Assembly: GCA_036785375.1 (NCBI GenBank)
Contig: JAWMAR010000391.1
Span: 1,116,001-1,180,000, forward strand
Length of the DNA: 64,000 nucleotides
DNA from: Leucoraja ocellata
Lineage: Eukaryota
Reading direction: 5' to 3'
In this document: one piece after another, positions 45,901 to 56,769 of the stretch
Position numbering within the stretch: position 1 is the first letter of the stretch
How the letters are laid out: the number at the start of each line of letters is the position of its first letter
Program-made: the position numbers and the translations under genes
The notes under the pieces: model-generated
Database searches by the model: none
What the model saw: only the letters and a program-made list of their open reading frames with translations
Told to the model about the DNA's origin: nothing

Positions 45901-48898
45901 TCATGTTGTTATTATGTTGTTGCCTCTTCTCCTTCCAAAACGAGGCACTACTTCTTTATGAAAGTAAATAGTTTGCACTGTCTTAACAAAGAAGCTGGCC
46001 TTTCAGCGCATCATATCGGCCATCAAGTACCTATCCAGACTAAATGCATTTGCCAACACTTGAATCATACCCTACTATTCCTGGGTGATTTAAGTGCTCA
46101 TCCAAATGTTTCTGTGATAGCCTCTGCCTTCACCACCACATCCAGACGTGCATTCCAGATTCCAGGCACCCTCTGAGTCACAAACCATTCTTCTGGTTTC
46201 CTCTAAATCACCTCAACCTTATTTCCTATGGTCTTAGACATCTCTATCATCGGGTAAAGTTTCTATCCATGCCTCTCATATTTCTGTGTAACTCTACCAA
46301 GTAGCCCCTAAGTTTTATCCAGTCCAAACTAATCCTCTCAAATCTCTCTTCCCAACTGAAATGTTCCACCCCAGACGATATTCTGGTGTCTCCTCTGCCC
46401 ACTCCAGTGCAATCCATATCCATATCCTCATTGTTGATGAACAGAACTGCTCCCAGCATTTCAGCTGCGTCCTAATCAAGACCTCGTTGCACATTATATC
46501 CTGGCTAATGAAGGCAAGCATCCCACATGCCTCCCTTATTATGTTATCCATCTGTGCATCTTTGGCCTTAATAATGGAAAATTATTTGCATTTATATCTT
46601 GTCTGAGGACATTCCAAAGTACTTTGCAGCAATCTCATTTGGTGTTGCCTAATGAAGGTCTGCTCACCCTTTACTCCCAGAGGTGGAAATGAAGAGTGCC
46701 ACTTACAGTTATTATGTCAGTTCAGAAGGCTTGGGGCCATATGTGTAAATAGTTCAGGGGGCTGAGAAGTAAAAGGAAGAGAGAAACTAGGAACAGAGAA
46801 AATTGAAGACGAGTATTTTACATACCAATCTGAAATTCTAACTTAAAAATAGAAGCTTATTTTGAGCAGAAGAAAGCACAAAAAGCATTTTAGGAGTACT
46901 TTTGTTAAATTTGTTATATTTAAGAAGGGGACGAATGATGTAAACGTAGGCATTAATCCTAATGAGGGAGATAGTACCACAACATTTAAGAAACATTTAA
47001 CATGGGATAGGATAAATGTAGAGGGCAGTCACGGTGGCGCAGCGGTAGAGTTGCTGCCTTGCAACAAAATGCAGAGCCAGAGACCCGGGTTCGATCCTGA
47101 CTATGGGTGCTGTCTGTATGGAGTTTGTATGTCCTCCCCGTGATCTGTGTGGGTTTTCTCCGAGATCTTCGGTTTCCTCCCACACTCCCCAAAGACGTAC
47201 AGGTTTGTAGGTTAATTGGCTTAATAAAAATGTAAAATTGTGTAAGTTGGCGATATGCAGAGTACTGCCCTGCCGACTACAACATTCAGAAGGTTCAGAA
47301 GGTAGAGGGATATGGGATAAATGTAGAGGGATATGGGACAAATGCAGGCAGGTGGGTCTAGTGCAGATGGGGCACATTGGTCGGGGTGGACAAATTGGGG
47401 CAAAGAACCTGTTTCCATGCTGTATGACATCCTGATGAGGAATCTTGTTAAAGCCTGAAATAGTTTCAGGCCTCTAAACAGTGGAAAACAAATGAAGTAA
47501 TTGGTTTAAGAGCAAGCTGAAAGTAGGAAAACACAAAGTACTGGAGGAACCCAGCAGGTCAGGCAGCATCTGCTGAGGGAATGGACAGACATTTCTGGTC
47601 GTGACCTAAGCCAACAGCACAAAGTGCAACTTGAGCACATTCTGCGCAGCAGGCTGCAAGTGAGCATTAAGTAACCTTGGTGAATGTACTCTTTACAACA
47701 GGGTGGATCTGATCTGATCGTTAGCAACTCTGGTCACAGAAAAGAAAAGTCCAAAAAATGCTTTTTGTTTGGAAGAAAAAAGAGATCAACAAATACATTC
47801 AAGGAGGAGCAGGTACGATTGGGAACAAGTGGTAAAGTAGTTGTGATCATACATTTGCCTTGAAGGATAATGTAAGATTTGTTGATGGGGTGAGATTGAA
47901 TAGGATGGAAGTAGTCTCAGACTCTGGTTTTAGTCGTTGGGCTGCATAGCTTGTTTGACAATTTCTTACATCAGCTGATGCTTGCTTCAGTATCTATAAT
48001 GAGAGCAATTCCTGCCAGAAATAGAATTGGAATTTGTTGGGCTTGATTTGACTTGTCAATTACAATCAGTTTTATTTTTGGTTACATTAAGTGCTTGACC
48101 TGATTAACTCAACATGATGAATGAATCCTGCAATTGCAGTTTCACACAGCAAGTCACACTTGCTCATCAACTGATGGCACCAATACCTTTCATTACTCCC
48201 CATTCATAATCACTTATTTTCGCTCATTTAGACCCATACTTGCCAAAATGTATTCAATTGGCCGCCTGCTTGCTGTCTTTTTAAAAATAATTATGGATAA
48301 AGTCTAACAGTGTGGTCCTAGTTTTGCAATGGATGTATTTTGGTTTATAGTACAATAGTTTGAATATTTTGAGTTCTCTATGGGGGGGGGGGGGGGGGCT
48401 CATTCCAACCAAGGGCATTGTCTGGGATTTGAAACCGTTTCTAAATCACCATTCTTTTTCTAGCAGCCAGTGAGAAGAAACGGGTTTGGCGTGAGCCCCT
48501 ACCAGTTGACTGAGCTGAGCCATGAGGAATCGGGAGGCTCGGTGCTGATTCCCCCCACATCATTGCCAGCTGTGTTTACCGCCATGGGAGATACCGAATA
48601 TTCTCACAACAGTGATGGAAGCCACGAAACTGGAGATTCGGGCAGGTATTCGCATGATTCCAGGGAGGAGATGGAAATGCTGCACCTTTCTTCTGTCACG
48701 TGTGATCCACCTGCCTTCTTGGGATCGTCTGTCCAGGGGGACACTGCCAGCATTCCTGTCCAGCCTACCTCCGGGGAAGATCAACGTGTGTTGGTTGTTT
48801 CTCATTCCACTACCTCTGACCTACTGGCGCTGCCTCGACCAAGCCACATGTCTTCAAAACCAACAAGTGAAAACACCAGCAACCAATTTCCAATTTAA
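1296..48898 (+). CDS. PRTG: Protogenin (Ig/FN3 receptor, DCC/neogenin family), 5'-incomplete spliced CDS: join(1296-1460,2514-2819,7590-7778,37847-37942,39401-39587,41401-41528,42852-43022,43736-43927,44965-45088,45714-45879,47702-47812,48464/48467-48898)
   Basis: Exon translations match the recalled vertebrate protogenin sequence ([78 protein letters not shown]). All introns are GT-AG and phases are consistent through to the TAA at 48896-48898. Confidence 0.95.
2514..2819 (+). CDS. PRTG: PRTG exon (complete FN3 domain; VPLRVPEIS...PKATSVK)
   Basis: gatgcag acceptor, AAAG|gtaatc donor, 306 nt. Confidence 0.94.
3820..3954 (-). mobile_element. CR1 LINE 3' end fragment
   Basis: catagaaacatagaaa tail; reverse complement matches the 3' UTR of the CR1 at 59054-59478. 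Confidence 0.85.
7207..7391. mobile_element. Penelope-like terminal-repeat insertion in fold-back configuration
   Basis: ~75-nt inverted arms centred on cgtttcgggccgaaacg; 14-bp TSD aaactaatttgttg at 7193-7206 and 7392-7405. Confidence 0.85.
7590..7778 (+). CDS. PRTG: PRTG exon (FN3 N-terminal part; [17 protein letters not shown]...YTISGL)
   Basis: tttccacag acceptor, CTCG|gtacgt donor, 189 nt. Confidence 0.93.
10897..11448 (+). mobile_element. tRNA-derived V-SINE (HE1-like) interrupted by an L2 fragment
   Basis: A-box-like gtggcgcagcagtag, V-domain ggagtttgtacgttttccccgtg, CR1-like tail ending ctaaactaaact. Confidence 0.8.
11160..11401 (-). mobile_element. L2 LINE 3' fragment
   Basis: Minus strand encodes an L2-type C-terminus (RLWNS...[23 protein letters not shown]); (caagt)n tail; cggtg duplicated at both flanks. 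Confidence 0.75.
13550..14575. repeat. Unclassified GC/CpG-rich interspersed element with internal repeats
   Basis: CpG-rich block in an AT-rich intron; internal ~115-nt direct repeat and an inverted copy; boundaries approximate. Confidence 0.5.
14774..14871 (-). mobile_element. Penelope-like terminal repeat fragment with hammerhead-like core
   Basis: Reverse complement ctgaagaagggtttcatcccgaaacgtc; TSD atttgttc at 14766 and 14872. Confidence 0.75.
15063..15295 (+). mobile_element. Probable solo LTR
   Basis: TGTAGCAGTAA...TTACTGTACA termini, internal AATAAA, CpG-rich; TSD not clean. Confidence 0.55.
15320..16420 (-). mobile_element. Possible non-autonomous Helitron-like element carrying a SINE/PLE fragment and C-rich/G-rich low-complexity DNA
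   Basis: Minus strand begins tatattactaaaactctcatcttg (Helitron-like 5' end from recall); CTAG at 15321; 3' hairpin is poor. Confidence 0.4.
15918..15986. repeat. (CA)n microsatellite
   Basis: Direct observation. Confidence 0.95.
16570..16680 (+). mobile_element. Degraded DeuSINE (SacSINE1/AmnSINE-like) relic
   Basis: gggactttgctatgtacacattagctgctgtacttcctaaattacagcag resembles the recalled Deu-domain gggatcttgctgtgcgcaaattggctgccgcgtttcctacattacaacag. Confidence 0.5.
17771..17988. mobile_element. Degraded fold-back Penelope-like terminal repeat
   Basis: gacacgaaatgctggagtaa ... ttactccagcattttgtgtc inverted arms. Confidence 0.7.
18452..18735 (-). mobile_element. V-SINE (HE1-like)
   Basis: Reverse complement of the SINE at 10897 and 47022. 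Confidence 0.8.
18745..18916 (+). mobile_element. CR1 3' fragment
   Basis: FKRELDRAL...[10 protein letters not shown]-like remnant plus the CR1 3' UTR. Confidence 0.8.
19118..19345 (-). mobile_element. V-SINE (HE1-like)
   Basis: V-domain and tRNA head on the minus strand. Confidence 0.8.
19722..19768. repeat. Short tandem repeat, 12-bp unit gcctggtgtatc x ~3-4
   Basis: Direct observation. Confidence 0.8.
20604..20954. mobile_element. hAT (Charlie-like) MITE
   Basis: Termini aggggtggggaacct / aggttcccctg; 8-bp TSD gtttagag (20596-20603) vs gttttgag (20955-20962). Confidence 0.7.
21150..21975 (+). mobile_element. Old degraded CR1 fragments
   Basis: Decayed CR1 ORF2 C-terminal motifs and tail (gaagggcctgttcctatgttgtac). 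Confidence 0.55.
22090..22342 (-). mobile_element. Rex1-like LINE 3' fragment
   Basis: Minus strand encodes [16 protein letters not shown], comparable to [17 protein letters not shown] of the 30.5-32 kb element; tttattgtca tail. Confidence 0.65.
22882..23750 (-). mobile_element. GC-rich non-autonomous non-LTR element with Rex1-type 3' end
   Basis: (ttgactc)n tail, 3' stem-loop tttggacc/ggtccaaa, CpG-rich body with a (CAG)n tract, no recognisable RT. Confidence 0.65.
26108..26500 (-). mobile_element. V-SINE with a tandem second head fragment
   Basis: Two consecutive tRNA-head/V-domain segments. Confidence 0.75.
27644..27923 (+). mobile_element. V-SINE (HE1-like), diverged
   Basis: Head, V-domain and CR1-like tail recognisable. 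Confidence 0.75.
28058..28226. mobile_element. Fold-back Penelope-like terminal repeat
   Basis: agatagacacaaaaagc ... gctttttgtgtccatct inverted arms. Confidence 0.7.
28500..29210 (+). pseudogene. Degraded Penelope-like element: GIY-YIG endonuclease remnant plus terminal repeat
   Basis: [11 protein letters not shown]...[24 protein letters not shown]...[10 protein letters not shown] resembles the recalled PLE GIY-YIG C-terminus; frameshifted. Confidence 0.7.
30509..32090 (-). mobile_element. 5'-truncated Rex1/Babar non-LTR retrotransposon
   Basis: RT ORF, 3' UTR with stem-loop, (ctatt)n tail; gtagaag at both flanks (30502, 32092). Confidence 0.9.
30734..32089 (-). CDS. Reverse transcriptase of Rex1-type LINE (5'-truncated, uninterrupted frame of ~450 codons)
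   Basis: [53 protein letters not shown] motifs. Confidence 0.93.
32960..33510. mobile_element. CR1 3' fragment (+) interrupted by a V-SINE (-, ~33112-33412)
   Basis: CR1 sequence resumes after the SINE (tagatcagccatgatcatattaaatgg). Confidence 0.75.
37449..37547 (-). mobile_element. Penelope-like terminal repeat fragment
   Basis: 14-bp TSD tttaatattttggg at 37435 and 37548. Confidence 0.8.
37847..37942 (+). CDS. PRTG: PRTG small exon ([32 protein letters not shown]), absent from the ORF track
   Basis: tttttttag acceptor, GTGT|gtaagt donor, 96 nt, completes the FN3 domain begun at 7590. Confidence 0.92.
39401..39587 (+). CDS. PRTG: PRTG exon ([21 protein letters not shown]...LVMYLQT)
   Basis: tttgacag acceptor, AAC|gtaagt donor, 187 nt. 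Confidence 0.94.
41102..41210 (+). mobile_element. Penelope-like terminal repeat fragment with hammerhead-like core
   Basis: CTGAAGA 41118-41124, GAAA 41138-41141; TSD tacaactatagtaa at 41088 and 41211. Confidence 0.8.
41401..41528 (+). CDS. PRTG: PRTG exon ([22 protein letters not shown]...LTLPE)
   Basis: poly-T tract plus ccag acceptor, GAAG|gtaagg donor, 128 nt. Confidence 0.94.
42115..42530 (+). mobile_element. Penelope-like 3' fragment (GIY-YIG end plus terminal repeat) nested in an old CR1
   Basis: [29 protein letters not shown]...[14 protein letters not shown], then ctgaggaagggtctcgacacgaaacgtc. Confidence 0.8.
42439..42470 (+). ncRNA. Minimal type-I hammerhead ribozyme-like motif
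   Basis: CUGAGGA-A-GGGUC uc GACAC-GAAA-CGUC: conserved core, helix II with one mismatch, palindromic ACGU helix III; helix I is very weak. Confidence 0.5.
42852..43022 (+). CDS. PRTG: PRTG exon ([16 protein letters not shown]...WQVLHRE)
   Basis: tcttgcag acceptor, GAAG|gtgagc donor, 171 nt. Confidence 0.94.
43736..43927 (+). CDS. PRTG: PRTG exon ([17 protein letters not shown]...SSADAK)
   Basis: poly-T plus ag acceptor, AAAG|gtaaat donor, 192 nt. Confidence 0.93.
44965..45088 (+). CDS. PRTG: PRTG transmembrane exon ([40 protein letters not shown])
   Basis: ttccacag acceptor, CAAG|gtatta donor, 124 nt; hydrophobic helix followed by a basic stop-transfer segment. Confidence 0.93.
45190..45424 (+). 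mobile_element. LINE 3' UTR fragment with (attct)n tail
   Basis: Stem-loop ccaccaacc/ggttgcgtgg followed by aataaag attctattctattc. Confidence 0.55.
45714..45879 (+). CDS. PRTG: PRTG juxtamembrane cytoplasmic exon (KSSAVK...[14 protein letters not shown])
   Basis: gtccag acceptor, AAG|gtaatt donor, 166 nt. Confidence 0.9.
46090..46560 (-). mobile_element. Old CR1 ORF2 fragment
   Basis: Minus-strand [12 protein letters not shown]..., [13 protein letters not shown]...[18 protein letters not shown]. Confidence 0.7.
47022..47245 (+). mobile_element. V-SINE (HE1-like) inserted in a CR1 3' fragment (46960-47430)
   Basis: Clear A box (tggcgcagcgg) and B box (ggttcgatcc); gggataaatgtagaggg-like flank duplicated. 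Confidence 0.85.
47702..47812 (+). CDS. PRTG: PRTG cytoplasmic exon ([37 protein letters not shown]), absent from the ORF track
   Basis: acaacag acceptor, CAG|gtacga donor, 111 nt, phase 0-0; resembles the recalled human GGTDLIINSYG...EQ exon. Confidence 0.88.
48464..48898 (+). CDS. PRTG: PRTG last coding exon ((Q)PVRRNGF...[15 protein letters not shown]...NQFPI*)
   Basis: ttttctagcag tandem acceptor; conserved HETGDSGR motif; TAA stop. Confidence 0.9.
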   Translation, partial: QPVRRNGFGVSPYQLTELSHEESGGSVLIPPTSLPAVFTAMGDTEYSHNSDGSHETGDSGRYSHDSREEMEMLHLSSVTCDPPAFLGSSVQGDTASIPVQPTSGEDQRVLVVSHSTTSDLLALPRPSHMSSKPTSENTSNQFPI

Positions 48899-49178
48899 GC
48901 AACCAGATCCAGTTTCACAATAATTTATCTGTACAATGGACAAATGTGCAGTAAGCCAAAGAACACTCTGGAAAGAAAGTCTGGGTCATTTTTTTTTTTT
49001 TAGTCACGCCAGGTTCTTACACACTTGGTTTATGAATGTTCCATATTTTTTATTTTAACCGCCATGAATGTCTATGTCAAAAAAATGTGAAAAGGACCAT
49101 TACATTTCTTTTGATTTTGATTTGAAAGGTATATCATTGGAGCAGAAATATTGTTTCAGGTTTTCTGCTGAAAAAAAT

Positions 49179-49186
49179 CTACCTCA
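49179..49186 (+). promoter_or_regulatory. let-7 8mer seed site
   Basis: CTACCTCA in AU-rich context ~280 nt after the stop; Prtg is a reported let-7 target. Confidence 0.7.
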
Positions 49187-50175
49187 ATTTTACCTAATGA
49201 TAAACCCCAGTATTTAACAGGATTTGACTCCATTACCTAATAGTTGATACTTCCTTACAGAGATGTGTTGTTTGATTAAAAATATGTTTGTTGGTGTTGT
49301 TCTGCTGTGATGTAGGGGTTGCAAGGACGTTGCCATGAGAGTGTTTGACTAAAGACCTGTTTACATGAGCAAGTGAGATTCTGAAATGGGGCCATATACA
49401 CAGTGCCTTTGAGCTGAAGTTGGCTTGATTATATTGTTAATATAAAATAAGATATCCAGTCAAGTTATTGGAAGGTTTTGAATTCATAATTTCAATCCAT
49501 GAAATTTTAAATGACTTTACACAGCTGCTACATTTACACTGTGCATTTACATGAAGCTGTTGAGGGGAAATTGTAGAGCTGGTTTGATTAGAGAAAAGAA
49601 GCAATGCTTTGGATTGAATGAGGTGCGTGTTGAAGTTTTGTGCCTCATTGATGTTCTTATTGAGCTTGTCCATAATGTTAATTTTGAAAGATATCCAAAC
49701 TCTGCGCTATAGGCAGAGTGAATGTATTCCCATTGAATCTGAAGCTGAAAAGCTATGAGTACATCCAGTTTCATTGACTATCTGTTGGGAGGCACAGCAG
49801 ACTAATTGAAGCAGGCCAGGGTTAACTGAAATGATTACCTAGATGCTTCCTGTTCTAGAAACTGGAAAATACAATGCAGATGCAGAAATTAGGGAAAACA
49901 TGCCTCCTGCATTGACCCCTATCACAGCCTTGTGCTGCGCCGGTTGAGTTCTGATTTCATGCATTCTAACAGATGCTTCGGCAACTATGTGACTGGTCCA
50001 TTTCAAACAAGAATTGTATCCAGTGGGATGGTGCTTGAGCATTCTGGTTTGCTGCGTTCACTTTTTAAAAAAAGGGAAATCTTGTGGAGTGTATAGTGAG
50101 TTTATTATCTGTAAGTACAGAAATCCGAGAAAGTTCAACGATGAGAATGTTCAAACTGAAGATGAAGTAAACTTT

Positions 50176-50400
50176 GTAGGAAGGAACTGCAGATGCTGGT
50201 TTAAATCAAAGGTAGACACAAAATGCTGGAGTGACTCCGCAGGACAGGCAGCATCTCTGGAGAGAAGGAATGGGTGACGCTTCGGGTGAAGACTCTTCTT
50301 CAGACTCGGGTTCTCGACCCAAAATGTCACCCATTCCTTCTCTCCAGAGATGCTGCCTATCCTGCTGAGTTACTCCAGCATTTTGTGTCTACCTTTGATT
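50176..50400. mobile_element. Fold-back Penelope-like insertion within the inferred 3' UTR
   Basis: Inverted arms ~50199-50278 and 50326-50405; TSD taaacttt at 50168 and 50401. Confidence 0.85.
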
Positions 50401-51190
50401 TAAACTTTACCTAAAGTTAAATATTCCAAGTGAATTTCCAGTGCCACTTGGTGACATGTTCAGATTAGTAAGTGGACTCTTATAAATTTTTTTTCCTGCA
50501 GCTTTGAAGTGTGTGGTATTGGCTAGCCTTAACCAAAAAACCTTCACTAAAAATCCACACCTATCACGGTAGACTAAATACATTTAATTATAGGCAGTTC
50601 CATGTCAATAAATTCTTCAATGTCATCTTTTAAATTAATTAACAGTACTTTTTATTTTTAAAAAAATGATTTGACATAAAACCCCTCTATCTCTTCCCCC
50701 CCCCCCCCCCCCCCCAAACTCATCAAATGCCTTAATTTAACAAACTGCAAAATGAAAAATTATGTAATGTCACACTTAATTGATTTAATTAAATTGAGTC
50801 CTGGAATAAAAAGGTCCTGCAGAGTTTTAAGTCTGATTAAACTATTCAAGGAATTCATGTATAAAATAATAGGAATATAATTTTTTTTATCTAGTTGAAA
50901 GGGAAGTAGAGTTACTTTAAAATAATATAACTTTGTGCTTGGATATTCAATAACTGTATCTCCACCACAATTTCTATAAACCTTCTGATTATAAAACAAC
51001 TTCAGCTTAACGGTATTAAATGAAAGAACTCCTTCAGAGTTCCGATCCAAAGAGCACCATTTGGTGCCTCATTTGTATTTGTTTTTAGAATTGCTTGCAT
51101 TACAAAATGGAGCTTCATGATACCAAAAATGTTGAGGACAATAGAAGCTGCTACTCTCATGTGCTCTAGCCTTGCACCTCCTGTTTGATA

Positions 51191-51454
51191 CTACCTCTTT
51201 ATAAAACCTATTTTAGTGTTATTCTTTATCTAACCTCAGGGATCAAATATTTGTTACATTTGAACTGCCGCACACAAGTGTGTGGTGTACTGACAGGGTA
51301 TCTTGTTTGAATTATTGCTTTTAAAATAGTTACTGTGTAGCTTTTAAGAGTTAGAACAGATCACTAGAATTGTGTGCCAGTAAATGTTCACACCTCTGCG
51401 ATGCCGATATATCAAAACTACTTTAAAATAAGCTTACCAAAGAAAATGTACATA
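51191..51454 (+). promoter_or_regulatory. Cluster: let-7 7mer-m8, miR-125 8mer, miR-9 8mer, Pumilio element
   Basis: CTACCTC 51191-51197; CTCAGGGA 51235-51242; ACCAAAGA 51436-51443; TGTACATA 51447-51454. Confidence 0.7.
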
Positions 51455-52629
51455 ACTTTTTACTAGGATTTTTTGGGCCATTTAAATGTTGAATTTCTTA
51501 ATTTTATAATAGTTTCTAATCAATCAGAAGTAGTGACTTGTATGTGTCTCGAATTGGAATTGATTTTCTAATACCATATTACACTAGAATAATTGGAAAC
51601 CTAATTTAGAAAATGAGCTATATTGATGTGATAACGCCCAAATGCTATTAAAACCCAATCTCTAACTGGAAACAAATTGAATTGTAGTAAATAGATATAC
51701 AATGATTTATTGTCCAAAAATACTTAAGCCAATTCTTTGTCTTATCCAAATCCCAAAGATCTTATTGTTTGAATGATGTTCTAATATCGGCTCAATGAAA
51801 GATCCTTAATACTAACTACTGAGTACGACTTCTGGTTAGCTGCACTCTGCTCTTTATAGTGTAGATCAGTTTTATAGTCAGTTTAGCACTTGTCTTTCAG
51901 ATTAGTGTCATCCCATTGTGTTGTTGGTAAAGGCGGTATACAAAGGTAAATGATAAGCAACTATATCCAAAGATTTAATGTTGACGGGGCACTGTATCTA
52001 TGTAGTATCTGAATTCCAGGTCTGAACTGTGTCACTTTTCATAAAACCTGCAGTAGAATCGATGAATGAAATGTAGAGAATTCTCTTGTACAACAAGATG
52101 TAATTTTGTAAAAGTACTTTCTTCTCCAAATTGCAATAATTGTTTCATATTATTAATTATAAGAGGATTCTCTTCATCCAACTAATCATAAAACGTCAAA
52201 TCGTTATTTGCTATTTTTAAATGGGCAAATGACCTCTTTTTGTGATTAACATAAATTCTAATATTTTTGAAATATCAGATTTTTCTACACAAACATAAGT
52301 TAAAATACTCCAGTTGCCTGTGTGTTCCCTTTAAGAATTCAGTTGAATTGCTATCATGTGATTGCCTGAGCCCTTCTCCAAAGAAAACTGCATATTTTTG
52401 TGGCTCACAGTTACATGGTTTGCATTACTTTCCTAACAATTAAATATAACGCCACAACAGCTCTGGAGTATGTGGGGGGAAAAGGGACTTGTAATAGCTT
52501 TAAATAATGTAATCAATATTGAGCAATAAAAGTGTTCAGTCTCATGCCTTGACAAATTTCAGGGAGCAGAGGAGCACAACTAAAGATTTTTAAAAAACAA
52601 TAAATACAGTATTAATATTTTGTTTTCAA

Positions 52630-52664
52630 ATACAGCTAGATCAGCCGTCCGTGAAAACCAAAGA
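52630..52664 (+). promoter_or_regulatory. miR-9-5p 8mer site with 12-nt contiguous 3' complementarity
   Basis: ATACAGCTAGAT (52630-52641) + 14-nt loop + AACCAAAGA (52656-52664), versus the reverse complement of miR-9, TCATACAGCTAGATAACCAAAGA. Confidence 0.8.
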
Positions 52665-54541
52665 TTTATTTTTTGTTCACCTTTGTGTATCAACAATAGG
52701 AGTTTAGTTCTTAGCTCCTGGAATGTGTCTTTTAAATGTTGTTTTAATGACTTGCTTATTTTGATGCAGCTACAAATGATGATAGTTAACACTCCAAATC
52801 AAAATTGGCATCTTAATGCTGGACAGCAGTCATTTTGAAATACTGTACACCATGTCATAGAATAATAATCATTACGGACTTTTCTTAATGTTTGTTTAAA
52901 ACACTGTTTATTGTCCCATCTCCTCATTCCCACAGCATTGAGGTAGCAGTTGCTGAGGTTCAATTATGGTGACACTTTGTGTAACTGTTACTCTCCTGCT
53001 GTGCATCTTCCTACTCTGGGCAGTCTGGTGTTCAATTTGAGCTATTGAAAAGTTTGAAAATGTGTGTTCATAAAGCCAAATTTTACAGAGTTGCACCCAC
53101 TTAGAGCACCTTGTGCAGCGGGGAGCATCAGTAATCATTTAAATTTTCCTTTGACAAAGGCAACTGTAAAATAATGAACACCACCCCGTCCGCTCCCTGT
53201 TCACCATGTAACTGTCCAGCTTTGTGTACTAGCTGGCTAAGACACACTCCCCGTCCAGGACATGAATCGGGTGAATAATGGAAATCCAGATATTTAAAAT
53301 CTGTTTGATATCATTGTTACTTCCGTATTACCCTGCAACAAAAAACAGTGAAAATATGTCTTTATAAAATACCTTCTGCCATGTAATGTACAGTATTTCA
53401 AGCATGGGAACTGTTGTAGATTCACCAGCATTTTTTCCACACTTTTCAATTCTGCTTCGGATATGATGTAGGTTGAACTGGTGTTTACACCACATCATTA
53501 GATAGTACAGCAAGATATTTATGAAGGACCTCACTTGCCGTTGCTAAGGAAACTCGTCATTGATTTCCAGCAAATCAAATTTTGTAATTACATTCATTAA
53601 AGTGGCTACATTTTTAAATTTATTAGGAGGGCCCATTATTGGTGCCTGATAACATCAATGCATTTGGAAATGTAAGCACAGTTTTGGATGGTAGTCTGCC
53701 TTTTAAGACCAGTAAAGGCAAAGTCTGGAAAATATGCTGGCCAATTGATGAGATTTTGCTGCCAGTTTTGAGATTGGAGATGTTAATTAAAATATAACTA
53801 AAACTACTGCCTCGTTTTTAAGTTAAGTATTTGTTGATGCACATTAATCTGGAATTATGTGTTAAACTGCCTGAAATTGTATTTTCATTTTAATTATGTT
53901 TAAAATGTGTGTGGCTGGTGTAACGGGTATCTACGTGACATTTGCTGCTTGCACCTTGGTGGTACTGAAGTATGTCACGTGACCACTCATTATAACAGTT
54001 AGGATGGGTGGGAGAAAAGTCATTGTAAACTGCTTTTATTTGGTTACTGTGTTTTATTCATTTGTGATGAGAATGATTAATGTGTTAGTTTTTTTTTGAT
54101 TTAGAGCATATTGATAAGATGTGAACTAAAGGGAAGAAGTGGAGGGTGCAGTCCAATATATCTCAGGTGTTCTGAGCCTTCTATCTTCAATTGCCAATGA
54201 TCTTGTAAAGGCAGTGTTTGCGATCCCGGCTCTGGACAGTGAATCTGCATTATATCAAATTTTATTTGTCTCAGGGGATCAGCTTCACTTTCTGTCCAGT
54301 GCTGCAGGAGAATAAACGTTTGCCTTGATTTGTGAATGTACCTCATTTATGTCTTTAACTACTTTTACTGAGAAACTGTGTGTTCCTATTTTATAACAGC
54401 ATTACAGTGAATGCTGCCGAGAGCTCAGGTGCCTGATCTGTAATTTTGCTGACTCATGCCAAAAATATAACTAGTCTAAAAAGCCAAAATGTTTTAAAAC
54501 TGTTGTAAAATAGTCTGCATTTTGAATGATTGCACAGTTTA

Positions 54542-54547
54542 AATAAA
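54542..54547 (+). terminator. Candidate distal polyadenylation signal AATAAA
   Basis: Canonical hexamer after the last miRNA sites, with GT-rich gtattgtgg ~20 nt downstream; alternative hexamers at ~50606, ~50805, ~52525 and 54311. Confidence 0.45.
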
Positions 54548-56769
54548 GTTTTCCATAAAATGCAGTATTGTGGCACATTTAATGGATGGGGGAAACATCG
54601 TCATGATGATTCCTTAAAGATATTTAAACTCCTTTTGGATGTGATTCGTTCTGCTTGTGTCTGTATCTCTAGATGAGTGTTTAAAAAAAAAAAAAAAAAT
54701 TTTTTTTAAATGAAATACTACTGCCTGTTTTTCCCAGGTGAAGTTCTGGAGCAGTCAGGATTTTGGCCTCAGGACAGGCTCCACCTGGCAAAATGGAAGA
54801 ACTTTAAACTCGCAAAGCCAACAAGGTGGAATAATAATGGTTCCAAAATAAACACAGGGAGAGAAAAGAGAGAGTGCCGCAGGTAAAGGGAAAATTGAAC
54901 AACGAGAAATGGTTAAACCAGAAAATATAAATAAGGTGTGTGAATGAAACGTTTCAGAAACAGGGCAGGTTAGTTTGTGTGATCCAAATAAGTATTCTTA
55001 CTATAAACACATGGACTTTAATGGTCAAATGAACTGAAAGCATCAATTCAACATGAAAAATATGACTTGGCAGATGCAAAACAGAAAGTAGGAAGTACCA
55101 TAAGGGTTTATATAAGCACTCATATAAGACGTATCAAAATAAAAACAACCTGAATCATTGTATTAGAACGAAGGTTGTAGTCAGGAGTGATGTTGTAAGT
55201 GAATGTAAAGAAATGGACAGTAGAGGATGAGGGTTTGCATTGTCCATTACATCAACCTCTGATTGGGATTCCCTTTCAATAAGTTGGAAGGTCTGCCTAA
55301 GTGATTTTTTTTTTTAATCGTCCATTTCAGTTAAATGTAAACCTATGGGTTCTTATCAGCTTGGACTTAACTTTCACAAGTTGTGGTTTATTATGTTCCA
55401 TTACCATACTTAGCAATTTCACTGGGTGGTCTAAGAAGCTCAGAATCTGTACTTCTGACCTTCCCTGACACAGGGCTTCTTGCTGTGTTCCACATCATTC
55501 AACAATTCTTTCTCCCATCTGAGTGCATTCTAATCTTTATTTTTAAAGACAACCAGATTCCCCAATATAATTCCACTCTGAGCTAAAATCACACCACATT
55601 GGTTTAATGGATATTACTCTATAAATGAATGAATGCATTCAGCAGCAAATGAATTGTACTTACAATTAATTGTTCATCACACATATTGACACTTTCATTT
55701 ATTATAAATCTTTTTCCTCATCGTGTTGGAAGGAGGATCTATTGTCTCCCTGGTCAGTCCAAGCAACAGCCCATCTCTTTAACTACTCGTTTTGAAGAAG
55801 AACTTTGGTTAAACATCTCAACATTGACCTCGATCACATACAGAACACAAAATGATAGAACGAATGATAGGTTAAGGCAGAATAATCTCCAATAACAGAT
55901 ACCACACTTGTGATAGTCACCTTTCAAGGCCTTGAGAATGGTTTGACCATAAATGAGACATAACATCATTCAAAATTCACTTACATTTGAGTGACTGTTG
56001 TTTCTTTCATGTTTATTAAACTTCTATTGTGTAAATTACCAATTTTGCACGCTTTGGGTTCTGTCGGTGAGTGCAGTATTGGCTGGGAAGGGCAAGGTAT
56101 CCACTGTTTCCCAGTGTAGGTGCCCATGGAGTGATATCAGAGTCTTTATGCCTGTGGAGTAGGCTATCCATAGTTTCCCAGTGCACGTGATGCCAAACAG
56201 TTTGGTCTATTGTCTGTTGGTAATGGCGAGCACTGAAAATGGTGTTGCAAAATTCAGGCCGATATAATAGCATCATGCAGTTTCATTTTGGATCTGGACC
56301 TTTACGCAAGATACAAAGAAATGAAAATATTAGTGGCCATCACTGCTTCTTGCAAACACATGTGCACAGAATATTTCTGGTGTGCCCCGTTTCTATGGCT
56401 TGAACACTAATTCATTCACAAAAGCTGAACCAATCTTTTTGGCAAATTGCCTTCATTCATTTTTAATCTTCTGCCTCGGGCACACTTACACTATTTTTGT
56501 TGGCTATGGAGAGTGAAACCTTATACTTGTCATCAAATAACTGGAAATGCTGGGGATACTAATCATGTCAGGCAGCACTTGAGGAGGTGCAAACAGTTAA
56601 TGCATCAGCAAGATGATCTTCCATGAGTTTTGAAAGGTCACAATTAATGTTTCAGGTTATCAGCATTAATGTTGTTTCCTACTTTGCAGATACTGCCCGA
56701 CCTCCAGCATCTGCAGATTGCTTCTTGCTTTTAAATTTACTAATAATTTTCTTTTTTAATAGCTAGACC

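Follow-up and report, generated by a model that had tools for sequence, protein, structure and literature searches.

The window analyzed here, a 64,000-nt stretch of the genome of the skate Leucoraja ocellata, carries protogenin (PRTG), the exons of which map in order on the + strand between positions 1280 and 48895. The open frame at 48464-48895 is 99% identical to the C terminus of a skate protogenin and 57 to 72% identical to those of other cartilaginous fishes; this protein identity, together with the ordered mapping of the exons, bears out the initial annotation of PRTG as the host gene. A 30-kb intron (7777-37843) separates two exons of the FN3 region. Approximately 3.7 kb downstream of the PRTG stop codon, on the sense strand, lies a split site for miR-9-5p, in which a 12-nt block and a 9-nt block complementary to the miRNA stand 14 nt apart. 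The positions of these and other features of the region are collected in Table 1.

Table 1. Features of the PRTG 3′ region in window coordinates
Feature	Position	Strand	Remark
Last coding exon of PRTG	48464..48898	+	stop codon 48896-48898
Inferred PRTG 3′ UTR	48899..54560	+	≈5.7 kb (5.66 kb); from run X15 contig cover, end set at hexamer 54542
miR-9-5p 7mer-A1 site	48956..48962	+	
miR-9-5p 7mer-A1 site	51047..51053	+	
Second miR-9-5p 8mer seed site	51436..51443	+	
miR-9-5p 7mer-A1 site	51753..51759	+	
miR-9-5p 7mer-A1 site	51967..51973	+	
miR-9-5p 7mer-A1 site	52378..52384	+	
Conserved island around the split site	52592..52693	+	4 of 102 letters differ, ungapped (run X20, organism H)
Poly(A)-signal hexamer, possible proximal poly(A) site	52599..52604	+	precedes the 3′ block by 25 nt; organisms F, G, H show no listed difference
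12-nt block of the split site	52630..52641	+	pairs with miR-9-5p nt 10-21; F, G, H without listed change
14-nt spacer (target-side loop, offset +14)	52642..52655	+	two CpG; miR-184 6mer match 52645-50; likewise without listed change in F, G, H
miR-9-5p 8mer seed site plus pair to nt 9	52656..52664	+	8mer itself 52657-52664
Poly(A)-signal hexamer, likely distal transcript end	54542..54547	+	last X15 cover at 54481; weak evidence, single run

The contigs of run X15, which derive from organism G and are presumed to represent RNA, place the split site in transcribed sequence. On the window these contigs begin at the last exon's splice acceptor, and a further 183 letters fall elsewhere, the pattern expected of a spliced transcript. 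They cover 48462-54481 with gaps, with depth in every bin up to 54540 and none from 54541 to 55260, and one contig of 3223 nt spans 50881-54125, across the split site. Because no single X15 contig joins the stop codon to the site and the contigs are strandless, we only infer the extent of the 3′ UTR; the original placement of the site in transcribed sequence downstream of the stop codon is supported to the degree that strandless contigs of a relative can support it. Raw RNA reads from runs X22, X23, and X24 (organisms D and B; 1-6% of each run) gave near-zero depth over the UTR apart from repeats. A high-copy SINE-like repeat occupies 50175-50395 within the UTR.

The two-part miR-9 match is real. 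On re-reading of the window, the block and spacer coordinates and letters given in the initial annotation proved exact, and the pairing it claimed, of one block with miR-9-5p nt 10-21 and of the other with nt 1-9, was confirmed against miR-9-5p from the same genome. This mature sequence was taken from the genome's own mir-9 hairpins, found by an Rfam search that returned five loci, all of which fold as hairpins and share an identical 5p arm (5 of 5), and it begins and ends as does the sequence given in PMC3848287 (partial text). The mir-9 and mir-184 loci (L001-L005 and L027-L028) resemble one another in pairs located on separate contigs, which suggests that haplotypes were retained and that the distinct mir-9 genes number three; the 3p arm of L005 differs from the others. 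One mir-9 and one mir-184 share contig C79. We also considered whether the site could be a degenerate copy of a mir-9 gene and rejected this, as the window has no Rfam match, no 3p-arm match occurs near the site, and the locus is absent from the mir-9 hits.

In the predicted duplex, miRNA nt 1-21 are all paired (21 contiguous) around a 14-nt target bulge with an energy of −26.3 kcal/mol, as compared with −36.7 were the match perfect and −11.3 for the seed block by itself. When nt 1 and 9-11 are left unpaired, as expected in Argonaute, the split site reaches −20.2 versus −9.1 for the seed only, and the 3′ pairing of nt 11 onward accounts for −16.7 kcal/mol. Since nt 10-21 are contiguously paired, the supplementary region at nt 13-16 and beyond is covered. 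The suggestion that the upstream TC (52626-52627) might add pairs to nt 22-23 fared less well, such duplexes being energetically worse (−23.7 or −24.2 versus −25.7).

The inferred UTR contains seven miR-9 seed sites, two 8mers and five 7mer-A1 sites, compared with 0.89 ± 0.94 in dinucleotide shuffles, none of which (0 of 3000) reached seven. The miR-9 7mer-A1 word is in fact the most enriched non-homopolymer 7-mer of the 16,384 in the PRTG UTR. The six seed sites outside the split site have at most five contiguous 3′ pairs each. The chance of 12 pairs within 45 nt is ≈6 × 10−6 per seed site, or 4 × 10−5 over the seven sites; shuffled 45-nt windows reached at least 12 pairs in 3 of 375,000 cases, and among random decoy miRNAs placed on the real UTR, none of 200,000 reached 12 pairs and three reached 11.

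Across the genome, the split motif gives 33 hits: the PRTG site, two further single hits, and 30 members of a single repeat family, recognized as such by alignment in 13 cases and by the spacer in 17. The expectation is ≈4.6 and a reversed control gave one hit, so there is no excess. It is thus the context, rather than the motif alone, that makes the PRTG site non-random. The repeat family itself, ≈900 bp long and MITE-like with long internal inverted similarity (loci L006-L014 and L017-L020 plus 17 further), carries its own split miR-9 match with an 11-nt 3′ block, a 20-25-nt spacer, and a 7mer-m8 seed, which is probably due to chance; copies inside 3′ UTRs could spread split miR-9 sites. A single-copy match at L015:1501-1527 (11-nt block, 9-nt loop, 7mer-m8 seed) is likewise likely to be chance. 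A pattern scan of metagenomes returned six split-motif hits, none resembling the PRTG UTR, which we judged to be chance.

To assess conservation, four runs were aligned to 52556-52755, three of which gave cover (organisms F, G, and H) and one of which, X17, gave none. Organisms F and G cover the full 200 nt with three changes each, all outside the split site. Organism G diverges by 3.5% over 3.2 kb, and its identity over the 41 nt concerned says little because the chance of 41 unchanged nucleotides at that divergence is 0.23. The informative distant comparison is a single contig (X20, organism H) of 931 nt that fits only at the island, where identity is 96% over ≈100 nt, with changes listed at 52606 and 52623 and two more, unlisted, near the ends. 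Its flanks fail to align at 80%, and by eye its loose ends are homologous and ≈65-80% alike, with gaps. Organism H shares 4% of words over 1 kb, the amount expected from the island alone, indicating that constraint over that kilobase is strongest where the site lies. The island occurs once in the assembly, in the window itself.

Conservation of the site in other species, as originally predicted, thus holds in all three with cover, where both blocks, the spacer, and the flanks (52624 to ≈52678) have no listed change. The accompanying prediction of fixed blocks separated by a variable spacer does not hold, as the spacer is invariant in 3 of 3. Since the spacer has changed no more than the blocks, the conservation cannot be put down solely to pairing with miR-9.

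The island holds several other features on which selection might act. The hexamer at 52599 and a U-rich tract at 52665-52678 form a possible proximal poly(A) signal, with another candidate at 52525. Use of the signal at 52599 would remove the split site, such that escape from miR-9 by alternative polyadenylation is conceivable. RNA-type contigs of organisms G and H read through the hexamer. A predicted hairpin at 52622-52658, with a 7-bp stem (52622-28/52652-58), closes over the spacer and the 3′ block and also takes in the seed block's 5′ end; its energy is −9.5 kcal/mol (z −2.4; as good in 4 of 200 shuffles), and opening the seed and 3′ block against local structure costs ≈9 kcal/mol. As a conserved feature, this hairpin is weakened by the change at 52623 in organism H, which breaks one stem pair without compensation. 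Seed matches to miR-184 fall at 52645, 53186, and 53251 (two 6mers and one 7mer-A1 within 600 nt), three versus 0.12 expected in the UTR (P ≈ 3 × 10−4 before correction for the number of miRNAs). The UTR also contains seed matches to let-7 (49179, 51191, and 54339) and miR-125 (51235, 52559, and 54270), which fit the published control of Prtg by let-7, miR-125, and miR-9.

These features bear on whether the 12-nt match is a coincidence within an element conserved for other reasons, the candidates being a proximal poly(A) signal, the hairpin, U-rich flanks that bind protein, and a miR-184 site, each alongside an ordinary 8mer. The unchanged spacer and flanks, the hexamer followed by the U-rich tract, the 7-bp stem, the clustered miR-184 matches, and the ≈4.6 such motifs expected per genome are all compatible with this explanation; moreover, a rate of 6 × 10−6 per site over tens of thousands of conserved seed sites would yield a fraction of one chance case. 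However, the miRNA that the block matches, at a chance of 4 × 10−5, is the same one whose seed is enriched above every other non-homopolymer 7-mer of the UTR, the stem pair at 52623 is broken in organism H, and the RNA-type contigs of G and H continue past the hexamer. We regard coincidence as unlikely.

We favor the reading, to which we assign a probability of roughly 0.55, that the split site is an 8mer repression site with 3′-supplementary pairing at a very long offset (+14) in the likely skate PRTG 3′ UTR. An Argonaute-miR-9 complex would dock on the 8mer, the 14-nt spacer would loop out, and the upstream block would pair with the miRNA's 3′ region (about nt 12-21), slowing release and thereby lengthening dwell time and strengthening repression. 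In concert with the six other seed sites, the split site might allow miR-9, while still low but rising, to silence Prtg at an early stage in neural progenitors. The distal helix would also be displaced by the long loop from the path recognized by ZSWIM8, in which case miR-9 would be held and mostly not destroyed.

Several published results are consistent with this mechanism. Human AGO2 can span 1-15 nt between the seed and the supplementary pairing, and for GC-rich supplementary pairing, bridges of 1-15 nt gave more than 10-fold higher affinity, with 15 nt still raising repression; for AU-rich pairing, a 10-nt bridge gave only 1.9-fold (10.1101/476960, partial text). miR-9 represses PRTG 3′ UTR reporters carrying mammalian UTRs (PMC3848287 and a review table in PMC9918188, both partial text). 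Prtg, a marker of early progenitors, goes up when miRNAs are missing, as in Dgcr8 mutant progenitors, and is predicted to be a target of miR-9, across vertebrates, and of let-7 (10.64898/2026.10.02.755877, partial text). The part of these three sources available to us thus upholds the earlier description of miR-9 as a reported Prtg repressor, and from these precedents and the duplex we infer binding, repression, and a role in timing at the split site. Counting against strong bridging are the GC content of the 3′ block (4 of 12) and, against an offset of +14, the optimal 3′-pairing offsets of 0 to +4 (PMC8940178, partial text). The reading is further weakened by the spacer being as conserved as the blocks, such that selection may act on the island otherwise, by the occurrence of the motif at chance level genome-wide, and by the ≈9 kcal/mol cost that the local hairpin imposes.

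A different arrangement would use two complexes acting cooperatively, with an Argonaute-miR-9 each for the 8mer and the 12-nt block, the latter serving as a seedless 3′-only site. The block fits the published definition of such sites (at least 10 contiguous pairs and no seed run of three at offsets −4 to +6), and sites with 12 contiguous pairs repressed like a 7mer for miR-155 and miR-124 (PMC12529927, partial text). Nonetheless, 3′-only sites have been demonstrated for some miRNAs only, with no mention of miR-9 in the main text of PMC12529927, and because 3′-only association is slow, the seed-anchored complex would reach the block first. We consider occupancy by two complexes very unlikely.

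The initial annotation had put forward a trigger of target-directed miRNA degradation (TDMD) or a high-affinity site. The second of these is plausible given the AGO2 bridging data, whereas the first is disfavored by loop length and ZSWIM8 data. As a ZSWIM8-dependent trigger, abundant early Prtg mRNA would destroy the first miR-9 to appear, producing a double-negative switch from early to late progenitors. The 8mer seed with 12 contiguous 3′ pairs (triggers have at least 6) and the conservation in organisms F, G, and H suit this role, as do the 3′ energy, which lies within the trigger range of −9.6 to −17.1 kcal/mol, albeit from different folding programs, and an energy ratio to the ideal trigger of 0.89 (the TDMDfinder high-confidence cut is 0.8).

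The loop, however, is 14 nt (15-17 with miRNA nt 9-11 unpaired) compared with 3-11 nt in the validated triggers described in PMC10899785 (partial text), TDMDfinder allows only a 2-8-nt bulge (PMC8887481), and altering the 4-nt Cyrano loop substantially reduced ZSWIM8 binding and ubiquitylation for miR-7 (PMC13083262, partial text). An approximate Lin et al. trigger score comes to 4.0 versus 9.5 at a short offset, the penalty in trigger prediction being 0.5 point per nt over 3 (PMC13041716, partial text). In addition, miRNA nt 22-23 are unpaired, and the six further seed sites mark PRTG mRNA as a target.

Mouse knockout data point in the same direction. In Zswim8 knockout E18.5 forebrain, hindbrain, and eye, the log2 changes of miR-9-5p were −0.05, −0.18, and −0.06, and the miRNA is missing from the ZSWIM8-sensitive list, which includes MEFs and induced neurons (PMC10620050). 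It is listed only in the all-miRNA sheet of Supplemental Table S1 of that study, with control and knockout CPM of 146,836 and 142,294 in forebrain, 111,223 and 97,877 in hindbrain, and 34,860 and 33,518 in eye (column order deduced from miR-7a and miR-29b); miR-7a-5p rose ≈3- to 7-fold in the same tissues. These data come from E18.5, MEFs, and induced neurons rather than early progenitors, and from mouse, whose Prtg may lack the split site; a trigger of modest effect would escape notice at the miR-9 levels measured there. The available parts of PMC10499020, PMC13369745, and 10.1101/2024.01.27.577548 describe no trigger for miR-9 or from Prtg. We consider a trigger at this site quite unlikely.

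Returning to the favored reading of a repression site with long-offset 3′ pairing, the opposition of Prtg by miR-9 belongs to the timing mechanism by which neural progenitors progress from early to late fates, and a conserved natural 12-pair site at +14 would show that the long bridges formed by AGO2 in vitro are used in animals. Because present pipelines exclude or penalize such offsets (through the 2-8-nt bulge filter and the per-nucleotide penalty), the class may be unlisted. The split site also offers a test of the boundary between tight repression and miRNA destruction. Were it a trigger after all, a long-loop (14 nt) Prtg trigger active only in early neural progenitors would be the first vertebrate miR-9 trigger found in the literature searched, and would imply both a timing switch built on mutual antagonism and a group of triggers with long loops that present pipelines filter out.

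Repression of Prtg by miR-9 is already published; the split architecture was not found in the literature searched. Searches for Prtg with TDMD found no paper, those for miR-9-5p with ZSWIM8 found no trigger study by title or start of abstract among the matches listed, and a search for a 12-letter piece of the site found no match in text, although a diagram of the mammalian site may exist in figures. The TDMDfinder table (PMC8887481 supplement) has six miR-9-5p rows and two Prtg rows, none pairing both, and its bulge filter would drop the site.

The closest known system is miR-9/Prtg repression itself (PMC3848287; La Torre 2013 via PMC9918188; 10.64898/2026.10.02.755877; all partial text), which shares the same miRNA and gene, several seed sites, a long 3′ UTR, and let-7 and miR-125 sites. 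The published sites are, in the available text, described as seed sites only, with no split 21-pair site; a human PRTG site in this literature (partial text), “mut3067-3102,” is 36 nt long. The TDMD triggers Cyrano/miR-7, Nrep/miR-29b, Plagl1, Lrrc58, Atp6v1g1, and Lpar4 (PMC10899785, PMC13041716, PMC13083262; partial text) resemble the PRTG site in their 8mer, long and strong 3′ pairing, and conserved 3′ UTR context. They differ in their shorter loops; moreover, the PRTG site leaves the last two miRNA nucleotides unpaired, miR-9 is not ZSWIM8-sensitive in the mouse data, and PRTG mRNA is a heavy target of the same miRNA. The 3′-only sites of PMC12529927 (partial text) likewise have 12 contiguous pairs to nt 10-21 and no nearby microseed, whereas the PRTG block has a full 8mer 14 nt downstream. 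Finally, long-bridge 3′-supplementary sites (10.1101/476960 and PMC8940178, partial text) likewise have a canonical seed and bridge a target loop as long as 15 nt to reach the 3′ pairing, while typical natural supplementary pairing in the same sources involves 3-5 bp at offsets near 0 to +4. The long loops of those sites are synthetic, whereas the PRTG site is natural and conserved, with 12 contiguous pairs at +14.
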